The translations under genes were made by a program, and so were the position numbers. From an uncultured bacterium (GTDB lineage: Bacteria > DUMJ01), in NCBI GenBank assembly GCA_937958695.1, contig CALGNK010000002.1, positions 585 through 64,584 on the forward strand: 64,000 nucleotides of DNA, given 5' to 3'. Numbering within the stretch: the first letter of the stretch is position 1; every line of letters starts with the position of its first letter. The notes under the pieces were generated by a model. The model was not told the origin of the DNA. It saw nothing but the letters and a program-made list of their open reading frames with translations, and made no database searches. Shown here piece after piece: positions 50,966 through 64,000 of this stretch.

Positions 50966-51808
50966 ATGGTTTCTGAAGAAACTATAAGAAGACTAGAAAA
51001 AATTGCATTAAAAATGAGATTGGATATACTCGAGATGGTGGGGGTAGGAAAAGCGGGGCATTTAGGTGGTTCTAGTTCCTGTGCAGATATTGTAGCTACT
51101 CTTTATTTTTACAAGATGAGAATCGACCCTGATAACCCAAAGTCGGAGAATAGGGATAGATTTCTTTTAAGTAAAGGGCATGGGGCTTTGGCACAGTATT
51201 CAGCATTAGTTGAATTAGGATACATACCCAGAGAGGAAATGAAAAAAACAAAGACACTTGAAGGTATACTTCAGGGACATCCTGATATGAAGAAGACTCC
51301 TGGTATTGAAGCTAATACGGGTTCTTTAGGGCAGGGCCTATCAATAGCTGTAGGAATGGCTCTTGGATTAAGGTTAGACAAAAAAGATAGTAAGGTCTAT
51401 GTAATTGTTGGAGATGGGGAGCTTGCAGAAGGACAGATATGGGAGACTATTATGTGTGCAAGCTATTATAAGCTCGATAATCTTGTAGCTATAGTTGATA
51501 ACAATAGGCTACAGGCAACTGGACCTATAGAAGAAAGGTTAAACATATTTCCAATAGCTCCAAAATGGGAGGCCTTTGGTTGGTATGTAAGAGAGATCGA
51601 TGGACATAATATAAAAGAGATAGTAGAGACTCTTGACGAGTTAGATAATATTTATGGAAAACCAAAGGTTATTATAGCTAAGACAATAAAAGGAAAGGGA
51701 TTTTCATTTGCCGAGAATAATCCTGCATTTCATAATATCCAGTTAACAGAAGAACAATACCTACAGGCTAAAAGAGAATTAGAAGAACAGATGGCGAGGT
51801 GGAGCTAA
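50966..51808 (+). CDS. Transketolase, N-terminal (TPP-binding) subunit
   Basis: GHLGGSSS and GDGEL(A)EGQ TPP-binding motifs; 280 aa. Confidence 0.88.
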   Translation: MVSEETIRRLEKIALKMRLDILEMVGVGKAGHLGGSSSCADIVATLYFYKMRIDPDNPKSENRDRFLLSKGHGALAQYSALVELGYIPREEMKKTKTLEGILQGHPDMKKTPGIEANTGSLGQGLSIAVGMALGLRLDKKDSKVYVIVGDGELAEGQIWETIMCASYYKLDNLVAIVDNNRLQATGPIEERLNIFPIAPKWEAFGWYVREIDGHNIKEIVETLDELDNIYGKPKVIIAKTIKGKGFSFAENNPAFHNIQLTEEQYLQAKRELEEQMARWS

Positions 51809-52746
51809 TGGTAGCAGAGAATCTTAGAGAAGCATATGGAAAAACATTAGTAGAATTAGGAGCTATATATAAGGATATAGTAGTATTGGATGCAGACCTT
51901 AGTAAATCTACAAGAACTGTACTATTTCAAGAGGCCTACCCTGAAAGATTCTTTGAAATGAGTATTGCCGAACAGAACATGGTAAGTGTAGCAGCGGGGC
52001 TGGCTCTAGTTGGTAAAATTCCCTTTGTCCATTCATTTGCGGTATTTGCAACAGGTAGAACTTATGACCAAATAAGACAGTCTGTATGTATAGCAGGACT
52101 CAATGTCAAGATATGCGGATCAAGCTGTGGTTTATCCGACTTTGGTGATGGTGCAACTCATCAGTCGATAGAAGATGTTGCATTAATGAGGGTTCTTCCT
52201 AATATGGTGGTGTTGGTACCTGCTGATGCTAATGAAACAAAAAAGATGGTAAGGGCCATGGTAAAACACTATGGACCGATGTATATAAGGATAAATAGAA
52301 ATGATCTACCTGTATATACAAGCGAAGATGGCGAATATGAAATAGGTAAGCTTTATCAGCTGAAAGATGGAGAAGATATTACCATATTTGCAAACGGAGT
52401 AATGGTCTCTAAAGCTATGAATGCGAGCGAAGTTTTAGAAAGAAAGGGTATATATACAAGAGTGGTAAATGTAAGTACAGTTAAGCCCTTGGAAAAGGAA
52501 GAGTTACTAAAGTATATAAAGGGAGTAAAAGGGATAATAGTAGCAGAAGAGCATAGTATTATAGGAGGACTTGGAAGTACTATAGTAGAACAACTTAGTG
52601 ATGTAAAACATCCTCCAGTTAAGTTTATAGGGATAAGAGATAAATTTGGTACCTCTGCTAGCAACTATGAAGAATTATTGGCGCATTATGGGTTGACCTC
52701 TGAGAGTATAGTAGATACTGCTATTAATCTATTAGATGGAGGATGA
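51799..52746 (+). CDS. Transketolase, C-terminal (pyrimidine-binding) subunit
   Basis: 10-nt overlap with the N-subunit; 315 aa. Confidence 0.88.
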   Translation: MELMVAENLREAYGKTLVELGAIYKDIVVLDADLSKSTRTVLFQEAYPERFFEMSIAEQNMVSVAAGLALVGKIPFVHSFAVFATGRTYDQIRQSVCIAGLNVKICGSSCGLSDFGDGATHQSIEDVALMRVLPNMVVLVPADANETKKMVRAMVKHYGPMYIRINRNDLPVYTSEDGEYEIGKLYQLKDGEDITIFANGVMVSKAMNASEVLERKGIYTRVVNVSTVKPLEKEELLKYIKGVKGIIVAEEHSIIGGLGSTIVEQLSDVKHPPVKFIGIRDKFGTSASNYEELLAHYGLTSESIVDTAINLLDGG

Positions 52747-55111: not shown

Positions 55112-55564
55112 ATGTCATACCCCTATAAGATCTTTATTTTAGTTGCCTTAGTAGTATTTCTAATCCCTGCTTCGGCCTTAGCCAGAGAAAGGTTTAGAGT
55201 AAATGTTAGGGCAGACTTAGAAGATGAGAATGTAGGAGCAGAGTTTGAGTATAATCTTAGTTACAGACTTTGTGTTTATGGAGGAATTACTCTTAGTATA
55301 GGAACTATTGATAGGGGAAGGATATCAGCTGGTTTTAAGTATTATCTTTGGGAACCGGATGAGAAACTGTACTTTAAGATACGTGGTATAACCAATTTTG
55401 AAGACTCAACTATTACAAGGTTTAAAGTAGATATAGGTATAGGTTATACTACATATCTTAATCATACAAGAAGTTCTATAGAATTGGGAGTTTTAATAGG
55501 TACTTATAACAATGCACTAAATATTGAGCCATCGTTTGGGGTATTGGTATCAGTAAGTAGATAA
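55112..55564 (+). CDS. Small secreted beta-rich protein (possible small outer-membrane beta-barrel), hypothetical
   Basis: Signal peptide ending ASALA; alternating hydrophobic pattern; 150 aa. Confidence 0.5.
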   Translation: MSYPYKIFILVALVVFLIPASALARERFRVNVRADLEDENVGAEFEYNLSYRLCVYGGITLSIGTIDRGRISAGFKYYLWEPDEKLYFKIRGITNFEDSTITRFKVDIGIGYTTYLNHTRSSIELGVLIGTYNNALNIEPSFGVLVSVSR

Positions 55565-55566
55565 GG

Positions 55567-56643
55567 CTAACCAGAGCGATTTAATAGGTTTTGATAGACC
55601 TCTTTAGTTTTTATAATCATACCTTCTAAGGTGAATCTTTCTCTATATCTTCTATATCCTTCTTCTTTTAAGTATTCTATTAACTTCTTATCACTTAATA
55701 GTTTCTCTATAGCCTGAGCAAGCGCTAAGGAATCTTGAGGAGGTACTAGAAGTCCGGCTTTACCATTTTCTATAATTTCTGGAATGCCTCCTACATTTGT
55801 AGCTATAACCGGAACTTTCTGAGATATCGCCTCTAAAATTGATATTGGTAATGCTTCAATAAGCGAAGGTAAAACAAATATATGAAAGTTACTAAAATAG
55901 AGTTTTGCATTAGGAAGAGCTCCTAAGAAAAAGACTCTATCCTCTATATTTAGTCTCTTAGTTAATTCTTCTAAAATATTTCTCTCTTCACCATCTCCTA
56001 TTATTACAAGATTTACTTCCCTATGTTTATTATACAAATAGCTGAAAGCTTCTATAAGATATCTGACCCCCTTAGATTTAGTAAGTCTTACTGCTGTTCC
56101 TATAATAACTCCTTCTATATTTATTGGAAGTTCTCTTCTCTCTTTACTCTCAGATACCCCATTGTAGATAAGTGTGATCTTATCTACAGGTAATCCAGCT
56201 TTGATAAGCTTTTCTCTATCATAGTTTGAGACTGCTATAACACTATCTCCCCATTTCCTATTTATAAGAGTAGCTATCTTATAGTCGATGAATGGAAGAA
56301 AAGTGTTATATCCATGACAGGTAAATATTACTGGTATACTAGAAGCTACGCTTTTAGATATATAGACTAGTTCATGCGCTCCATGAACATGGATTATACT
56401 AGGACTGAATTCTTCTATTATGTATTTCAATTCCCTTTTGTAATTTTTAGTATTTGTGAATGTAAGCGGTATAATTTCTCTATATGTAATATTACCTTCT
56501 TTTAGAAGGGTAATGCCTTTCCCGTACGGTGCAACAACCAATATTTTATACTCATCCTTAAAAGATTTGACTAGTTCTATCACATGGACTTCTGTCCCTG
56601 CAATCTCAAAGTAAGGCAAAAGATATAAAATCTTATGTTTCAT
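55567..56643 (-). CDS. Glycosyltransferase family 4, last gene of the EPS operon
   Basis: Its N-terminus is very similar to the 33743..34807 GT4 (KILYxLP...GTEVHxxELxK). It starts 8 nt downstream of the BcsB-like stop. Confidence 0.75.
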   Translation of the reverse strand: MKHKILYLLPYFEIAGTEVHVIELVKSFKDEYKILVVAPYGKGITLLKEGNITYREIIPLTFTNTKNYKRELKYIIEEFSPSIIHVHGAHELVYISKSVASSIPVIFTCHGYNTFLPFIDYKIATLINRKWGDSVIAVSNYDREKLIKAGLPVDKITLIYNGVSESKERRELPINIEGVIIGTAVRLTKSKGVRYLIEAFSYLYNKHREVNLVIIGDGEERNILEELTKRLNIEDRVFFLGALPNAKLYFSNFHIFVLPSLIEALPISILEAISQKVPVIATNVGGIPEIIENGKAGLLVPPQDSLALAQAIEKLLSDKKLIEYLKEEGYRRYRERFTLEGMIIKTKEVYQNLLNRSG

Positions 56644-56651
56644 AGATTAAT

Positions 56652-58670
56652 TTAAGAGCCTCTCTGTCTCTTCCTAATAAATATAATAGTAACAAGGGTA
56701 ATTAAGACCGCTATCAATAACACTATGAGATAACTTAATAGTGGTTGCCTAGCAAATATGGTGAATAATGCCCTCTTTTCTCTTATAAGGATACTTGAGA
56801 CAATCTCTCCTAAGCCAGTTATAACACTGACTTGTCCATAGATTTTATTTCGGGTATCCGAATTCCCTACAATTCTCTTTAATCTAGATAATGTATCTTG
56901 GTCTTTATAGATGACTGAATACATAGCCTTGTCTTTATTCCAAGGAGAAGAATTTGCTTGTAAGAGTGCCTTAATGATAAATCCATCGAGAGAAAATCCT
57001 AAGTCTTTTTTTATAGAGAATCCAATCTCTTGGGGGACTACCCATAGTATATCAGAGATTCTCTTTAGCCTTTTGTCCTCCATATCTCCTATAAATATCA
57101 CATTCTTATCTTTTAGATAATCTTCATCTATCTTTTCCCCTAAGAATGTCTTCCATCTAAATATCTTTCCCAGCGTCTGTCCTAAGGTGGCAGATAAGGT
57201 AACAGACAGTGAAAGCTCTTCTTCAGATGGGCTTTCGGGGAGCCATAGAACGATCTCTCTATCAGTCTTGAAACTCCAGATGTCTCTAAGGTCGGGATAA
57301 AATCCTCGCCATTCTTTTACTAGATATATGAAAGAATCTCCTTCAATCTTAGTCCAAGCTATTTCATCATACCTCTTATTACAGTCCACCTCTATCAGAT
57401 TATGATATGTTTTTATCTCTACAAACCATTCTCTCTTATCAAGCTCTTCTTTTGGAAATGGAATTCTTAAAACTCCTCTTTCAGCATTCCCTGCATCCAA
57501 TCTTTCACTCTTTACCGGAATCCCATTTATGTAAACAGTTATCGAAGATTTTTTGGTTTCTAAAACCTTGGAGTGGCTAAATTGAAGCTCTATAAATGAA
57601 CCGTTTCCTATCCCTTCAAAACCTGCCGGTAACCTTAGGAGAAAAGACGCGTTCTGATGAAATACACCTGAAAGAACTATATTTTTGTAGCCAAGGTCTT
57701 TTAGCCTTATCAAGCCTTCTTTTCCTATCTCTTCTCCCTCTTTAGCTGGGATTGAAGTTACAATTATTGGATTCTTCTCCGTAATAGATGTCTGCAATGG
57801 ATCATTAATATAAGAAACAGCCTTTGATAAACCTTCTCTTTTGCCTGATATATATAATTGTACTCTATCTTTTGAGGAAAGAAGATATATTAGTCCATCA
57901 CTTTCTTTTAGATTTTTAAATGCACTGTCTGAAGATAGTACATTCCATCTTGATAACTCTCCTACAAGAATCTGTGACTCTTTACTATATCTATAGGGAT
58001 CTTCTGTAGAAACCTTTAGATAGAGATTCTTGTATCTTTCTCTAATACCTAAACCATTTGCTACCTCTAACATAGCTTCTAACTCTTCTGGGGAAAAGTT
58101 TTTAGGGAGATAAAATGTAAAATTGATCGGCTCTTTATCAAGATAATCCAAAAATGGATAGGGATAATCAGAAATTTTATAAATTTTATTTTCTAGAATC
58201 TCTAGGTGTAGAAACGAATCTTTATGTATTAGCACCCAGTTGGCATCGTTATCTATATCCTTACATAGACCTTCTACACTCCTATGTCTAGTAATTATAG
58301 AGATCTCATTGAACCCTTTCTTAATTAATCCTTTAGGGATACTTATTCTCCAGTATACAGGTCTCTTTTCTTTCTGACTTATGCTTTTACTGCTTAAAGG
58401 CCTCCCATTGATTGATGCAGTTATAAAAGATTCTCTATCTATAATGGTGGGAGAAAACGAGTATCTGATTTCTAAGAAATTATTATCCCCAGGTTGAATT
58501 CCCGACTTTATCTCAAACCAAAAGACCGCTTTGCCAATGGGTAGATTTAAAAGCCTATCGTCTTTAAATAACTGTATATTGTAACCTCTAGTTTCTAAAG
58601 AACAGTAAGAAACATTGGGAATTAGGTGAAATATAAAGATAAACATTAACAAAAGAATTCTTCTTTTCAT
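56652..58670 (-). CDS. BcsB-like (YdaN-like) exopolysaccharide synthase periplasmic subunit
   Basis: 672 aa with a signal peptide, a large extracytoplasmic domain and a single C-terminal TM anchor. 1-nt overlap with the GT2. The assignment is by architecture and synteny. Confidence 0.55.
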   Translation of the reverse strand: MKRRILLLMFIFIFHLIPNVSYCSLETRGYNIQLFKDDRLLNLPIGKAVFWFEIKSGIQPGDNNFLEIRYSFSPTIIDRESFITASINGRPLSSKSISQKEKRPVYWRISIPKGLIKKGFNEISIITRHRSVEGLCKDIDNDANWVLIHKDSFLHLEILENKIYKISDYPYPFLDYLDKEPINFTFYLPKNFSPEELEAMLEVANGLGIRERYKNLYLKVSTEDPYRYSKESQILVGELSRWNVLSSDSAFKNLKESDGLIYLLSSKDRVQLYISGKREGLSKAVSYINDPLQTSITEKNPIIVTSIPAKEGEEIGKEGLIRLKDLGYKNIVLSGVFHQNASFLLRLPAGFEGIGNGSFIELQFSHSKVLETKKSSITVYINGIPVKSERLDAGNAERGVLRIPFPKEELDKREWFVEIKTYHNLIEVDCNKRYDEIAWTKIEGDSFIYLVKEWRGFYPDLRDIWSFKTDREIVLWLPESPSEEELSLSVTLSATLGQTLGKIFRWKTFLGEKIDEDYLKDKNVIFIGDMEDKRLKRISDILWVVPQEIGFSIKKDLGFSLDGFIIKALLQANSSPWNKDKAMYSVIYKDQDTLSRLKRIVGNSDTRNKIYGQVSVITGLGEIVSSILIREKRALFTIFARQPLLSYLIVLLIAVLITLVTIIFIRKRQRGS

Positions 58671-59932
58671 TACGAAACACTCCTTTCCGTTTTATACCAT
58701 CTTAATGCTTTACCTGTAATCTTTTCTCTAATAGAGAAATATATCGCTCTTATAACAACTATAAGCCAAAGCTGGCAGTATGTAAAATACATTAAACATA
58801 TCAATAAAAGGTTTTCTAAATTACCTTCGCCTCTTTCAAAACTTAGAGATATAAATGTCTCTGTGATATAAAGGGCATAAGCTAAGAACCATATGAGAAA
58901 TAGTGGGCCTCCAATGTTTAGTTTTATTATGCGTAGTAAGCCCAGAATAAATATTACATCTGACACAACTATACCAGAAAAAGCCAGTAGATATATATAG
59001 GCGAAATAGAGTATATCAAACATAATCTTTTTATCTCTTAACGAGAAGAAATTTTTAAGATATGTAAATATTACTGCAAGATTCCCCCTTGCCCATCTTG
59101 TCCTTTGCTTGAACCAAACCTTAAGTTTTTCTGGTTCTTGTTCCCATGTTACTGCGTATGGTATCCAGAGTATCCTATAGCCAGATTGGTATATCCTTAT
59201 TGTAAGTTCTGTATCCTCTGTAAGGCTCTTAGTTTTCCAGCCGCCAATCTTGTTCAGAAGCTCCTTTCTTATGATAAAATTAGTACCTGGTATTGTAGCA
59301 AGACCCCACAAGTAATTTCTAGCTGCCTGGACAAGCCACTGAAAACTCAGGGTCTCTATATTTATAAAACGAGTAAGTATACTTCTATCCCTATTCCTAG
59401 TCCTAAACTTTCCTACTACTGCCCCAAGGTTGGGATTATTGATTATAAATCTTACAAGATTTAATATTGCTCTCCTTTCAGGGGTATTATCAGCATCATA
59501 GACTACTATGTAATCCCCACTAGCTAACTTTAATCCCTGATTCAGTGCGTTAGCCTTGCCTTTAGCACCTAAGGGTGGTTGTATCTCTAATATCATAAGG
59601 TTTTTGTACTTTTTAGCCCTCTCTCTTAAAATTTCTCCTGTTCTATCTGTAGAACTATCATTGATAACGATGACCTCTAATTTATCTTTAGGGTAAATAG
59701 ATCTCATTATTGCATCTACAGTATTACCAATCACCTTTTCCTCATTGTGAGCTGGGATTAATACTGTTATCTTTGGATATTCTGAGAGTTCCTCTGAGGT
59801 TATCTCAAATTTTTGTGTCTCTAAAAAGTATCTATACCCAAAGAACGTTAAAAAGATATGATACAGTAGAATAAACCAGACGATTGCCATAGATATAACA
59901 AAGGCATAGTCCCAGAATGTTAATATATTCAT
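58670..59932 (-). CDS. Processive family-2 glycosyltransferase (YdaM/PgaC/BcsA-catalytic-core-like) with no PilZ domain
   Basis: QRTRW (QxxRW) at nt 59093-59107, DAD and DSSTD motifs, 2 N-terminal and about 3 C-terminal TM; 420 aa. Confidence 0.8.
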   Translation of the reverse strand: MNILTFWDYAFVISMAIVWFILLYHIFLTFFGYRYFLETQKFEITSEELSEYPKITVLIPAHNEEKVIGNTVDAIMRSIYPKDKLEVIVINDSSTDRTGEILRERAKKYKNLMILEIQPPLGAKGKANALNQGLKLASGDYIVVYDADNTPERRAILNLVRFIINNPNLGAVVGKFRTRNRDRSILTRFINIETLSFQWLVQAARNYLWGLATIPGTNFIIRKELLNKIGGWKTKSLTEDTELTIRIYQSGYRILWIPYAVTWEQEPEKLKVWFKQRTRWARGNLAVIFTYLKNFFSLRDKKIMFDILYFAYIYLLAFSGIVVSDVIFILGLLRIIKLNIGGPLFLIWFLAYALYITETFISLSFERGEGNLENLLLICLMYFTYCQLWLIVVIRAIYFSIREKITGKALRWYKTERSVS

Positions 59933-61407
59933 ACTTTATCACCCATCTCGTATAGTTTTCTCTTATTTCTTATCAGATAGAAAATAATTATGGCAAAGAT
60001 ACTGATTGTAATTATTAATATGGTTCTCAGATAATTAATGAACGTCTTAAAGACTTTTTGCAAAAATGTCTCCTCCAGAGGAGGAATACTACTATTGATT
60101 ACCTTTTCCCCATCGATATTTACAATTTTCATATATTTGCTTTCTACTTTGAAAGGTTCTTTTCTTAGTTCTAAGAAGTTGTACCCTAACGCACGCATCT
60201 CACCTATCAATTCTCTTAGTTTATCTGTTGTAGCGTAAGATGGAACCGTAATACCTATAATAGCATCTCTTAAAATTCTAAATTCCCTTGCCCTTTTCAA
60301 TAGATAGTTATATTGTGTAGGATCATTAGGATTATATCCATTCATATTTATCGGATATGCTATAGCTTTTGGGGAGCTGATGCTTAAAAGCCCCTCGTAT
60401 AGGAGAAGATTGAAAATTTTACTTGCCTTTTCGTAAGTTTCAAGTGAAGTATCGGGCAACTTAAACGCTATGGGAAATATCTCTAATCTCCCTAATATTA
60501 GTAAGTCCTCTTCTATTATACTATTAATGTCTCTCTTATTAGGATAATTCCCCAATATAATAGCTCCGTTATGTTCTTCTACAAGTTTTAATACCTCTAT
60601 AAGGTCCATATTTTCTCCCAAGTAGTAAGTATTCCCAGAATGATTTACTTTAGGGTATATTATAAGATTAATAGAGACATCTTCACAGCAGTAAGATATT
60701 AATAATTCTCTAAGTTTTTCAGCAGAGGTTAAAGGGGTTACCTCATCTAGCAAGAGTAAAATTTTTCTATCATTTTTGTGATTCTCATTAAGTATATCAT
60801 GGAGAAGATCGAAGAATACCAAAAATGAGTTATCCCTAAAGTCTAATCTTCCAAAATACCAAAGATTCTCCTTTTCCCAGACAAAGGGGGTCTTTTCAGT
60901 ATAATTATCTAAAAGGGCAAGATCTTTCCTATCTCTAGGATAGGCAATATAGACTGGAGATTCTAGTTCAAAGCTTATCGATTCTCCTTTATAGAAGATA
61001 GACATATATCCAGTTTTATAACCATAATATTCAAGATCTTTCCAGTTAGCATAGTAAGCATACTGTTCTATATTTCCTTCTATCCATATAAGCCTTTTAG
61101 CTTTAGAGATATTTCTTAACAAATCTACAGTAAATCTTCTATCTTGTAGCCCAAGATAGAAGACATAGTCGTAAGAAGAAACATTACTAGGGAGATCTTC
61201 TATATAGCTACTATCTATAGATACATTAAAGTGTCTTAGGTACCTTTTTAGCAATTCTAACATAGGATAATTTTCACCTAATCTTGTCTTACCCTCATAC
61301 AATATAAGAATACGTTTACTTTCTTTAGAGTAAAGGATTTTGGGAAATATAAAGTTTAATAAAGTTAAGATAATAAGACTTATTAGTAAGATCTTACCCA
61401 ACATCAT
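59929..61407 (-). CDS. YdaL-like bitopic protein of unknown function (possibly a DUF2334 deacetylase-like fold)
   Basis: N-terminal and C-terminal TM helices with a 430-aa extracytoplasmic domain; 492 aa. The position matches ydaL. Confidence 0.5.
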   Translation of the reverse strand: MMLGKILLISLIILTLLNFIFPKILYSKESKRILILYEGKTRLGENYPMLELLKRYLRHFNVSIDSSYIEDLPSNVSSYDYVFYLGLQDRRFTVDLLRNISKAKRLIWIEGNIEQYAYYANWKDLEYYGYKTGYMSIFYKGESISFELESPVYIAYPRDRKDLALLDNYTEKTPFVWEKENLWYFGRLDFRDNSFLVFFDLLHDILNENHKNDRKILLLLDEVTPLTSAEKLRELLISYCCEDVSINLIIYPKVNHSGNTYYLGENMDLIEVLKLVEEHNGAIILGNYPNKRDINSIIEEDLLILGRLEIFPIAFKLPDTSLETYEKASKIFNLLLYEGLLSISSPKAIAYPINMNGYNPNDPTQYNYLLKRAREFRILRDAIIGITVPSYATTDKLRELIGEMRALGYNFLELRKEPFKVESKYMKIVNIDGEKVINSSIPPLEETFLQKVFKTFINYLRTILIITISIFAIIIFYLIRNKRKLYEMGDKV

Positions 61408-62248
61408 ATCTACTAGTATCTTTTGCCCTCTCCCAAAGGACTAATGCATCTTCTCCCTGTTGATATTCTGCCTCTCCTACTTTTAGTCTTATAGAGATCG
61501 ACCTCTTACGACCCTTAACCTCTACAACAATTCTATCTAAGAGATTATGGAGTTTTTCTTTTACGATCTTAGCTGAATCTAGATTTATACCAGGTAATAT
61601 TATGCCTATAGTTGCCTCATCTATTAGCCCCTTTATATCAACGACCCTTGTATTAGTCATTATCGTTTGTGCTATGGTTTTTACTATCTCTCTATAGCCA
61701 TCCTCTCCATAGACACCCCTTAACTCACTTGCGTCAGAAACATTTACATATAGAACAGATAATTTCTCTTTAAACCTGTTAGCCCTACCTACTTCTTCTT
61801 CCAATCTCTGAAAAAAGCCCTGAGTATTTAAGAAACCTGTCAACTCGTCTAGAAGTATTAATCTTTCCGCTATTCTATACTTTTCTATGTTACTTAGGAG
61901 ATTACTTACCTCTCTTTCTAATCTTCCAGAAAGATAAGCTCCAAAGGGCATAGCAAAAAGCCAAAGTACATATTCAATTCTAAATTCTGTTATAGTACCC
62001 AATACTAAGACAGAGTATAGTAGATAGGATCCATATACAAATATAATGATAAGAGAAGTAATTAAGCCGGGGATTAGACCTAAGTTATAACCTATTACCA
62101 TATTTATTACTAATGCCCCAGCTAGTATGTAGTTTATGAAGTTTACATTTTGACTTGTACCAAAGACTAGAATAAATATACAGAGCCAGAAAATCATTAA
62201 TAGATCAAAGATCACAACATCTAGTCTTAGATTTATACTTGTCTTCAT
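61394..62248 (-). CDS. YdaK-like membrane protein with a degenerate GGDEF domain retaining an RxxD I-site (putative c-di-GMP receptor)
   Basis: 4 TM, then DELTGFLN, the start of a GGDEF domain. The GG(D/E)EF position reads LIDEAT, while RVVD is preserved five residues upstream. Confidence 0.65.
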   Translation of the reverse strand: MKTSINLRLDVVIFDLLMIFWLCIFILVFGTSQNVNFINYILAGALVINMVIGYNLGLIPGLITSLIIIFVYGSYLLYSVLVLGTITEFRIEYVLWLFAMPFGAYLSGRLEREVSNLLSNIEKYRIAERLILLDELTGFLNTQGFFQRLEEEVGRANRFKEKLSVLYVNVSDASELRGVYGEDGYREIVKTIAQTIMTNTRVVDIKGLIDEATIGIILPGINLDSAKIVKEKLHNLLDRIVVEVKGRKRSISIRLKVGEAEYQQGEDALVLWERAKDTSRYDVG

Positions 62249-62282: not shown

Positions 62283-63380
62283 TTATATACCATAATTTCC
62301 CATTTTAGCTAGTAGTATTAAGGTCTCAAATTGGTCAAATACATAGAGGTCTTTAGATTTGTAGTCTCCAAGCTTAGTAATATTTATTTTACTCAGAAAG
62401 ATATCTGATTCTCCTCTTTTATTCAAATTTAAAAGGAGTAGTGATAGAGTTGCATATACTCCATAAGACTCATCTGTTGTAGCAGATTTGCCATTCCAGT
62501 AATAAGAAGTATAGATTTTACCATCTTCTCTCATCTTTGTATTTATAAAGTTAATAAACCGCTTGATAAGATTATAATCGCCGATATTTATGCCTATATA
62601 AGCCTGCTCAATCATATTTACCTTTGAAGGTGTATGATATGTGGATGATGGAATATCATAGTAATCTGGGAAGAAGATCTCGGAAAATTTTAGAGATTCT
62701 TCTAAGATCTTCTTGGAACTCTCATAGAAAACTTTGAATTTAGGTATATACTGAGATAATTTTGAAATCATCTCCAGATTTAGATAGAACAGTGGAACTC
62801 TCTTATTAGCCTTTTCTGTCCTCCCATCAAAGTAGTCAATAAGATATTTGTCATAGCTATTGAATTTTATTATATTTTCCCCGATATAGATCCCATCTCT
62901 TAAAAATCTTTCCTCTTTAAAAGTCTCATAGGCTTTTATCAAGGAGTATGAGATCCTTAAAGAGTCTAATAATGATGTAGCATCGTCTGGCAAGAGTGTC
63001 CTTCTATTTATCCTCCAGAATAAATAACCCCTAGGGGATAGAAAGTATCTCTTTGTTACCTTCCAAGTAGTATCGAAAAGAATAAGGTTATTGGTATTTA
63101 CTGCATATTCCATCAATTGTCCCATAGATTCTAGGAGAGAATACTCTATAGGCATATCATTTTGAATTTTAGAAGCGATTAATCCTCTTCTATCCATAAA
63201 TCTTTCTTTGATATGATTTAATATACCTCTTTCTAAATCTCTAGAGTTGGATATAGTCTCTTCTATAGCCTTTTGTATCCTGTAACCTAAAAGATAATCT
63301 CTAACAAGAGAGAAAGAAAAAATAGATGCCAATATTAACAATATCGTAATAATCGTGTAACTCAACTTCTTAATAGTCAC
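62283..63380 (-). CDS. YdaJ-like secreted or anchored glycoside hydrolase (GH8-like by synteny and size)
   Basis: 365 aa with an N-terminal signal anchor. LLESMGQ loosely resembles the GH8 catalytic Glu region. The assignment is weak without an HMM. Confidence 0.4.
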   Translation of the reverse strand: MTIKKLSYTIITILLILASIFSFSLVRDYLLGYRIQKAIEETISNSRDLERGILNHIKERFMDRRGLIASKIQNDMPIEYSLLESMGQLMEYAVNTNNLILFDTTWKVTKRYFLSPRGYLFWRINRRTLLPDDATSLLDSLRISYSLIKAYETFKEERFLRDGIYIGENIIKFNSYDKYLIDYFDGRTEKANKRVPLFYLNLEMISKLSQYIPKFKVFYESSKKILEESLKFSEIFFPDYYDIPSSTYHTPSKVNMIEQAYIGINIGDYNLIKRFINFINTKMREDGKIYTSYYWNGKSATTDESYGVYATLSLLLLNLNKRGESDIFLSKINITKLGDYKSKDLYVFDQFETLILLAKMGNYGI

Positions 63381-63385
63381 TTATA

Positions 63386-64000
63386 CTATTTATTGCCAGG
63401 TTCAGCTAACCTACCCATAAAAAGTATACTTCCAGAACGATTATCCCTTATAAAAAAGATAAATGGTCTATCAGCGAGAAATACAATAGGCATAACAGCC
63501 ATCTTAGTTCCCATTATGACCGCAGTAGCAGCTGCTGCCTCTGTTCCTTCCTCGTTTACTTCAACAAAAGATTGATGGATAACGCTATTTATATATAGAT
63601 CTGGTTTTGGTGTCATTCCGGAGAAATCAGCCTTTATCATATCGAACGCATCAACCATACCTAGTCTTTTTAGGATATCATTAAGGATGTACCTTTTTTC
63701 TATCTTGAATCTTGGGATATAGACTTCAACCTCTCTTTCTGATAGTGATGATAACCAAGTCTTTAGTTTTTTCGTTGAGAGAATCTTTTCTATCTTAGAG
63801 AGCATAATATTAATTTTAGGTAGAACAATAATCATAGATAAATCCTTTCCAGCATATAGTATCTCTAAGACTTGAACCTCATTGTCCTCTCCATAGTTAA
63901 ATCTTCCTTTTTGATACATCATTGGCATATCCAATTTGACATTCTCAGATACATAGAAAGGCATATTTTTAGTATTTTTAGGATCAAACTGTAATTCCCA
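63386..64000 (-). CDS. Serpin (serine protease inhibitor), C-terminal ~200 aa; the 5' end lies beyond the window
   Basis: Hinge and reactive-centre loop EEGTEAAAATAV (nt about 63521-63553) and C-terminal signature FLADRPFIFFIRD. The frame stays open to nt 64000 (…WELQFDPKNTKNMPFY…). Confidence 0.85.
   Translation of the reverse strand, partial: WELQFDPKNTKNMPFYVSENVKLDMPMMYQKGRFNYGEDNEVQVLEILYAGKDLSMIIVLPKINIMLSKIEKILSTKKLKTWLSSLSEREVEVYIPRFKIEKRYILNDILKRLGMVDAFDMIKADFSGMTPKPDLYINSVIHQSFVEVNEEGTEAAAATAVIMGTKMAVMPIVFLADRPFIFFIRDNRSGSILFMGRLAEPGNK

Follow-up and report, generated by a model that had tools for sequence, protein, structure and literature searches.

The 64,000-nucleotide (nt) stretch analysed here, hereafter the window (positions 585 to 64,584 of contig CALGNK010000002.1, assembly GCA_937958695.1, from an uncultured bacterium of the lineage DUMJ01), ends within a serpin gene, which is followed almost immediately on the same strand by genes for exopolysaccharide (EPS) synthesis. 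Judged by their families and their order, these downstream genes are a Pss/Yda-type EPS cassette of the cyclic di-GMP (c-di-GMP) kind, arranged as ydaJ-K-L-M-N and extended by a family 4 glycosyltransferase (GT4) gene. On balance, we consider it probable that the serpin is an exported, Lys-directed protease inhibitor, which is co-expressed with the EPS machine as a protective accessory and is useful without the cassette as well. Taken singly, the serpin and the cassette belong to known families and are ordinary in them; what is new is their conserved joining in one operon.

The serpin part of the window, an open frame of 204 codons (serpin residues 203-406) closed by a TAG stop (63388-63386), matches the Pfam family Serpin (PF00079) with E=4.7e-70 and 237 bits over profile positions 166-370 of 370. 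Since the profile is covered only from position 166 onwards, this fragment represents the C-terminal half of the protein, and the remainder lies past the window end. The missing N-terminus, for which the first-pass annotation had suggested an upstream extension, was taken from near-identical contigs located by exact-sequence look-up of the neighbouring proteins, namely L002 (1 difference from the window in 5096 bases) and L003 (28 in 8682). In both contigs the complete serpin consists of 406 amino acids (aa) and is uninterrupted. An identical 406-aa serpin, P0134, is recorded on a 65,508-bp NCBI contig that also encodes the glycoside hydrolase family 126 (GH126) protein of the window, indicating that the serpin gene is intact in the window lineage. 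The extension also recovered a Sec/SPase-I-type signal peptide, MRSMYLFIALFLLVTFLGQLSILSNALA followed by IKD, which was judged by inspection; this putative signal peptide starts with positive charges, continues with a hydrophobic core of 20 residues, and has A-L-A just ahead of the expected cleavage site, and hydrophobic N-termini are present in all serpin orthologues compared. As the protein has no cysteine at all, and hence no lipobox Cys, it is not a lipoprotein. Over the whole 406 aa, residues 34-403 align with SERPINB1 and chloropin, and the two best solved-structure matches are human SERPINB1 (4ga7, E=7.6e-93) and chloropin from Chlorobium (8gxv, E=1.7e-92).

The window serpin peptide carries the diagnostic hinge and loop EVNEEGTEAAAATAVIMGTKMAVMPIVFLADRPF. 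The hinge, E352-EGTEAAAAT, fits the inhibitory consensus for P17-P8, E-x-G-T-E-A-A-A-x-T with small residues at P12-P9, and in 12 orthologues (61-100% identical) it is either unchanged or altered by a single A to G, S, or T. The distance from P17 to P1 is 17 residues, which is the canonical length, and counting from the hinge places P1 at K368, a residue assigned by this length rule together with the alignment of the reactive-centre loop that had been recommended for the purpose. The P1 Lys is unchanged in 12/12 serpin orthologues, with Met or Ala at P1', and it stands opposite a Cys of SERPINB1, which we take to be the P1 residue of that protein. The gene is under strong purifying selection, with pairwise ratios of nonsynonymous to synonymous divergence (dN/dS) of 0.05-0.20 in all 28 pairs whose dS is unsaturated. 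By these hallmarks, the serpin is predicted to be a functional exported inhibitor, for which a protease cutting after Lys is the candidate target.

The spacing between the serpin stop and the start of the GH126-like gene, reported as 5 nt in the first-pass annotation, is exact provided that GTG is the start, and both genes lie on the minus strand. This GTG is unchanged in nine orthologous junctions (window, L072, L005, L073, L067, L074, L075, L077, and L079), and an AT-rich spacer of 5-11 nt (6 nt in L005) is kept across all nine. Among the seven co-directional genes, the gaps and overlaps range from -14 to +34 nt. Neither a terminator-like site nor a promoter above chance was found between the serpin and the GH126 gene; promoter-like matches inside the serpin gene number nine, against 13.6 expected in shuffled sequence, and include weak ones at L003 622-651 and 789-817 (9/12). 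Given the close spacing, the lack of a terminator, and the lack of an above-chance internal promoter, the serpin and the cassette are likely to be co-transcribed, and translational coupling of the serpin and the GH126 gene is plausible. The start of the GH126 gene has no Shine-Dalgarno motif, whereas 37 of the 52 long open reading frames (ORFs) in the window possess one, and a GTG without such a motif 5 nt past a stop fits termination-reinitiation.

Upstream of the serpin, just past the right end of the window, the gene in the window lineage encodes a GH63/MGH1-like glycosidase (L003:1-147 and L073:4463-6157), before which L073 has a GH2 gene; GH2 is directly upstream of the serpin in L005 and L001; the serpin is placed there between carbohydrate-degrading and carbohydrate-synthesising genes. 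An element of the form TTTAC(A/T)-N17-TGnTATAA, with an extended -10, is located 5' of the serpin and is common to eight lineages with diverse genes on the upstream side (GH63-like, GH2, or a binding-protein gene), and the serpin Shine-Dalgarno site GGAGAGTG is common to the same eight. In L005 and L008, hairpin terminators directly precede this promoter element. The serpin was also considered as an accessory of the upstream glycosidases, similar to what has been proposed for cellulosomal serpins, because GH2 and/or GH63-like genes are co-directional upstream in L073, L075, L005, L001, L072, and the window lineage. We regard this as very unlikely, since the upstream neighbour varies (L008 has an opposite-strand binding-protein gene there, L007 a LacI-type one), the terminators and the conserved promoter set the serpin apart from the genes before it, and the gap is 75-170 nt on the upstream side, compared with 5-11 nt on the downstream side.

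A scan of species-representative genomes, seeded with peptide patterns of the window serpin, gave 62 serpin loci across many phyla. Together with the three large groups described previously (PMC8233489), this number speaks against the initial view that bacterial serpins are rare. The nearest relative of the serpin, L005 (84% identical), shows full synteny, and in the cassette-less loci L006, L007, and L008 (73-80% identical) the GT4 gene comes directly after the serpin. In L011, a metagenome-assembled genome (MAG) of Dictyoglomus with a serpin of 61% identity, a BcsB-like gene is positioned tail-to-tail with the serpin. No EPS cassette was found beside the serpin in the other approximately 50 loci, three of which have weak GT2/GT4 matches at 23-28% identity. 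The GH126-like family is small, with 12 protein clusters, and its contigs together with a metagenome scan revealed the same succession of serpin, 5-11 nt, and GTG in L072, L073, L067, L074, L075, L077, and L079. With the window and L005 included, the cassette-linked loci represent five lineages, in which the identity of the YdaJ-like protein falls from 88% to 64% and synonymous divergence is saturated.

The loci without a cassette retain traces of it. In L008, serpin and GT4 are 115 nt apart, and this spacer is made up of the 3'-terminal ~95 nt of the BcsB gene together with the BcsB-GT4 junction; its alignment with L067 spans 105 nt, and its reading frame encodes SYLIVLVITILITLVTILFIRKRQ. The spacer of L006 keeps ~60 nt of the 5' end of the YdaJ-like gene, and that of L007 keeps ~24 nt of the junction. 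For each of the three, the observed alignment score was reached by 0 of 300 shuffles. The cassette-less lineages also nest among the cassette-bearing ones, L006 being nearest to L005, and L007 and L008 nearest to L074. From the differing end-points and this nesting it follows that the cassette was lost at least twice, with the serpin staying intact and constrained. An insertion of the cassette into a pre-existing serpin-GT4 pair was rejected on account of the YdaJ-like or BcsB remnants in the spacers and the nesting, and an ancestral block with repeated deletions is favoured instead.

Variation of the same kind is present within one species-level group (YdaJ-like proteins 96-100% identical), in which L077 is intact, L076 and L078 are partly deleted, and L080 has no serpin. 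In L076 (11141-11629) and L078 (5311-5799), a deletion of ~5 kb joins codon ~125 of the GGDEF gene to codon ~629 of the BcsB gene, while the serpin is intact; as their YdaJ-like proteins are 99-100% identical to that of L077, the EPS cassette is polymorphic within one population. In L080 (376-1278), the place of the serpin is taken by a 300-aa PAS-like/GGDEF protein, which retains an intact RYGGDEF and is likely to be an active diguanylate cyclase; the breakpoint falls inside the first ~20 hydrolase codons, L080 and L079 share 97% identity in the YdaJ-like protein, and the GT4 gene of L080 appears fragmented. Moreover, one and the same slot, preceded by genes of 327 aa and 153 aa and followed by those for an HpcH aldolase and a 2-hydroxyacid dehydrogenase, is occupied in L010 (9433-11212) by only the serpin and in L068 (9512-16722) by only the five-gene cassette. 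The deletions, the replacement, and the slot variation show that the serpin and the cassette are separable: a clade inherited the pair from its ancestor and broke it up repeatedly, and neither partner needs the other. The functional dependence of the serpin and the EPS genes that the first-pass annotation implied is contradicted by the repeated cassette deletions, the replaceability of the serpin, and the more distant cassettes, which lack it and follow other upstream genes, as in L068 (52%) and the Dictyoglomaceae locus L069 (39%).

Such instability could also mean that the adjacency is nothing but inherited gene order, with the serpin transcribed alone, the start site of the cassette lying within the serpin 3' end, and no co-regulation of the two. 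The locus does behave as a rearrangement hot-spot (independent deletions, gene replacement, and an inverted gene for a 150-aa protein), the slot of L010 and L068 holds either partner, and the serpin gene contains weak promoter-like matches. However, these matches are no commoner than in shuffled sequence, the gap of 5-11 nt and the GTG have persisted despite saturated synonymous divergence, no terminator separates the genes, and the sole conserved promoter-like element is upstream of the serpin, so that we hold mere inherited order to be unlikely.

Several points weigh against a co-expressed, Lys-directed inhibitor. The P1 call follows a rule and an alignment rather than a mapped cleavage, and no candidate target protease was found in the 64-kb window by a crude regular-expression search for serine protease and metalloprotease active-site motifs; one match, in a 315-aa ORF (51799-52746), was taken as false, as the ORF looks like a transketolase subunit. 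Co-transcription and coupling are both inferred from spacing only. YdaJ-like genes without a Shine-Dalgarno site also occur behind other genes (L068 and L080), and the expectation that such a gene gains the site away from the serpin failed in both, so that the absent motif is not specific evidence of coupling to the serpin. The linkage of the serpin to the EPS operon, as first annotated, is supported by co-direction, the 5-nt distance, the lack of a terminator or above-chance promoter in between, and conservation in five lineages, and its description as translational is to be read as an interpretation. An RNA hairpin can be folded over the stop and start at window positions 63370-63450 (L003:1380-1500; -29.2 kcal/mol, z=-3.35 against shuffles), but RNAalifold gave no consensus structure for it across eight lineages, for which reason the hairpin was dropped as a coupling mechanism. 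Finally, one natural allele has a stop at hinge position P17: in L004 (ENA ERZ6863514, same lineage), a G to T change at position 553 turns E352 (window codon 63553-63551) into a stop, which may be a genuine null allele or may stem from an error of assembly. This nonsense allele indicates that the serpin gene can be lost. A stop in the part of the serpin beyond the window had been raised as a possible sign of a pseudogene, and the only stop found is that of L004, the 406 aa of the window lineage being intact. The same allele might suggest a serpin in decay or a remnant without inhibitory activity, an idea that is extremely unlikely, because the ORFs are of full length in all other lineages, dN/dS is 0.05-0.2, P1 is unchanged, and the hinge is conserved; for the window lineage, the intact ORF and the dN/dS values led us to reject the pseudogene reading.

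A closer relationship is conceivable, in which the serpin is a dedicated partner of the EPS system, either controlling proteases of the matrix or synthase as a switch between build-up and dispersal, or being activated by the polymer as a template cofactor, in the manner of antithrombin and chloropin with heparin or DNA. This is unlikely in our estimate. The tight linkage is kept over five lineages, and a conserved promoter precedes the serpin as the leading gene of the operon; where the cassette has been lost, a glycan gene, GT4, still comes directly after the serpin; a BcsB-like gene is tail-to-tail with the serpin in L011; and chloropin is accelerated by polyanions (PMC10090351). The isoelectric point (pI) of the mature serpin gives a further weak hint, being 8.8-9.2 in the operon-linked clade (L003, L072, L005, L073, L007, and L008), as opposed to 5.3, 7.2, and 5.4 in the distant unlinked orthologues L010, L011, and L012, respectively. 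However, purifying selection is equally strong where the cassette has been deleted (L006, L007, and L008), the cassette occurs without the serpin in L068, L069, and L080, the characterised Pss and Yda systems work without a protease inhibitor, and the pI correlation involves three outgroup sequences and tracks phylogeny. The basic pI may accordingly reflect polymer binding or may just follow phylogeny. A more specific version, in which the serpin is a polymer-responsive part of the matrix, the EPS binding the basic protein as a template or anchor to give a protease-inhibiting matrix or a proteolytic switch under serpin control for matrix build-up and dispersal, seems improbable to us. Heparin activates antithrombin as a template cofactor, and a polymer-responsive serpin, if true, would be a bacterial analogue of heparin-activated antithrombin contained in one operon.

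We return to the serpin as a protective accessory, for which the following scheme is proposed. The serpin would be the promoter-proximal gene of a seven-gene unit comprising serpin, GH126, degenerate-GGDEF receptor, YdaL-like, GT2, BcsB-like, and GT4 genes, and the conserved promoter 5' of it probably drives the entire block. With one promoter for the block, the inhibitor and the EPS machinery would appear together during matrix building, and the second cistron may be translated by ribosomes that have finished the serpin. The serpin is presumably exported to the periplasm or cell surface, a compartment probably shared with the anchored hydrolase, the nascent polymer, and the BcsB-like subunit with its large extracytoplasmic portion, and there it would inhibit, as a suicide substrate, a protease that cuts after Lys. 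It would most likely shield proteins of the envelope and matrix in aggregates or biofilms, as an accessory and not as a mechanistic subunit of the synthase, and this role would persist after loss of the EPS cassette.

The coordinates of the serpin features and of the EPS genes are collected in the table below. The first gene of the cassette had been annotated as GH8-like; however, Pfam GH8 scores 22.1 bits on the window hydrolase, under the 24-bit cut-off, and a family profile (A1) searched against PDB matches the GH126 proteins PssZ (6r2m, E=2e-30 over 300 residues) and CPF_2247 (3ren, E=1.3e-25), as compared with E=0.005-0.3 for GH8 enzymes (CelA 0.054). The protein is thus better described as a GH126 PssZ/YdaJ-like hydrolase. 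Its residue E84, which is unchanged in alignment A1, corresponds to PssZ Glu51, the proton donor (PMC13363691). The GGDEF protein, a candidate c-di-GMP receptor by its motifs, carries DEATI in place of GGDEF and, five residues ahead of it, the RxxD I-site RVVD, and its N-terminal ~110 residues are hydrophobic by inspection. The GT2 synthase scores 192 bits against the NCBIfam model PgaC_IcaA, below the equivalog cut-off. As for the membrane protein at the YdaL position, PF10096 (DUF2334) is present in its orthologues from L068 (51% identical) and L069; B. subtilis YdaL presumably belongs to this family as well.

Table. Serpin features, EPS genes, and the convergent neighbour in the window
Feature	Position	Strand	Basis or detail
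Serpin, C-terminal part and TAG	63386..64000	-	Translation, Pfam, full-length L002/L003 and P0134; N-terminal 202 codons outside window
Predicted reactive-centre loop, EEGTEAAAATAVIMGTK followed by M	63500..63553	-	P17 E352 (63553-63551), P1 Lys368 (63505-63503), P1' Met369 (63502-63500)
Serpin/GH126 junction	63378..63385	-	5-nt spacer TATAA (63385-63381), GTG start (63380-63378) of GH126-like gene
GH126 PssZ/YdaJ-like EPS hydrolase, 365 aa, N-terminal membrane anchor	62283..63380	-	Family profile vs PDB
YdaK/PssE-like c-di-GMP receptor candidate, degenerate GGDEF	61394..62248	-	Pfam GGDEF E=9.7e-15
Membrane protein at YdaL position, 492 aa	59929..61407	-	No significant Pfam/NCBIfam match
GT2 processive synthase, PgaC/IcaA-like, YdaM/PssC position	58670..59932	-	Glyco_tranf_2_3 E=6e-32
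BcsB-like subunit, YdaN/PssD position, C-terminal transmembrane helix	56652..58670	-	Pfam BcsB E=1.4e-35
GT4 glycosyltransferase, last co-directional gene	55567..56643	-	Glycos_transf_1 E=1.8e-42
150-aa protein, signal-peptide-like N-terminus, convergent with GT4	55112..55564	+	No Pfam/NCBIfam match

Homologues of the 150-aa protein are always found beside the serpin/EPS block in relatives (L005, L006, L008, L010, and L068). Their arrangement differs: the gene follows GT4 in convergent orientation in the window, L005, L006, and L008, whereas L010 and L068 have it upstream and in the same direction. The protein may be part of the serpin/EPS module.

The nearest named relatives of the serpin and of the cassette alike are MAGs of Dictyoglomus or Dictyoglomaceae. 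The window has a GC content of 36%, and its IVYWREL fraction of 0.449 over 52 long ORFs corresponds to ~85 C, a rough estimate by the Zeldovich regression. The host is probably a Dictyoglomota-related thermophile, and the hot environment supposed at first is reasonable on this rough estimate. As the GC contents of the serpin (0.343), the cassette (0.334), and GT4 (0.326) are all near the window value (0.360), GC gives no signal of horizontal transfer.

By family or, for the YdaL-like protein, by position, the cassette has the same parts as B. subtilis ydaJKLMN and L. monocytogenes pss (pssA-E plus pssZ), with the order as in yda, and B. subtilis YdaK shows the layout of the window GGDEF protein, with RxxD five residues before SDERI (PMC5422440). 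This likeness is drawn from families, order, and published descriptions, the one direct sequence comparison being with PssZ. In contrast to yda and pss, the window operon adds a secreted serpin in first position and GT4 in last position, and its host lies outside Firmicutes. The B. subtilis ydaJ operon is SigB-driven and has topB upstream, and no protease inhibitor was found in the published descriptions of Yda or Pss systems. Our literature searches, the coverage of which was incomplete, returned no report of a serpin or any other protease inhibitor with a Yda, Pss, Bcs, or Pga operon and no paper on a serpin in Dictyoglomus, and a search combining serpin with EPS, biofilm, or operon gave nothing relevant. 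The earlier remark that described Bcs/Pga/Yda operons contain no protease inhibitor agrees with these results.

With the characterised prokaryotic serpins, including chloropin (8GXV), tengpin, thermopin, miropin, Tk-serpin, and Pnserpin, the window serpin shares the full domain, the inhibitory hinge, and an N-terminal export signal, and several of them also come from thermophiles. Unlike the window serpin, none of them has been reported inside a polysaccharide-synthesis operon, and the window protein is distinguished by P1 Lys, P1' Met/Ala, and the lack of cysteines, its inhibition being predicted from sequence. Human SERPINB1 has a hinge (EEGTEAAAATA) and a loop length identical to those of the window serpin, but it is intracellular, without a signal peptide, and has Cys/Phe at P1, whereas the window serpin has a putative signal peptide and P1 Lys. 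The likeness to SERPINB1 does not imply a recent transfer (PMC8233489). According to previous studies, most prokaryotic serpins carry transport peptides and fall into three large groups (PMC8233489), and the characterised ones protect cells or extracellular complexes from proteases (PMC10090351).

As in the cellulosomal serpins of C. thermocellum, a serpin is tied here to an extracellular carbohydrate machine of a thermophile; the tie in the window is genomic, by operon position, and the machine makes a polymer instead of degrading one. The tie of cellulosomal serpins is physical, through a dockerin module. A preprint proposes that cellulosomal serpins shield the cellulosome from proteases (10.1101/2020.04.21.053413).

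Little has been learned so far of what serpins do in prokaryotes, and the handful investigated were treated as isolated genes (PMC8233489, PMC10090351). The locus described here provides a serpin with a conserved and interpretable genomic partner, a c-di-GMP-type EPS machine, along with natural "knock-outs" of either one in close strains. It gives a testable hypothesis, namely that the serpin would protect the envelope or matrix from proteases when cells aggregate at high temperature. In addition, the locus supplies a candidate heat-stable Lys-directed inhibitor and extends the Pss/Yda system outside Firmicutes; should the polymer prove to regulate the serpin, the latter would represent a matrix component of a new kind.

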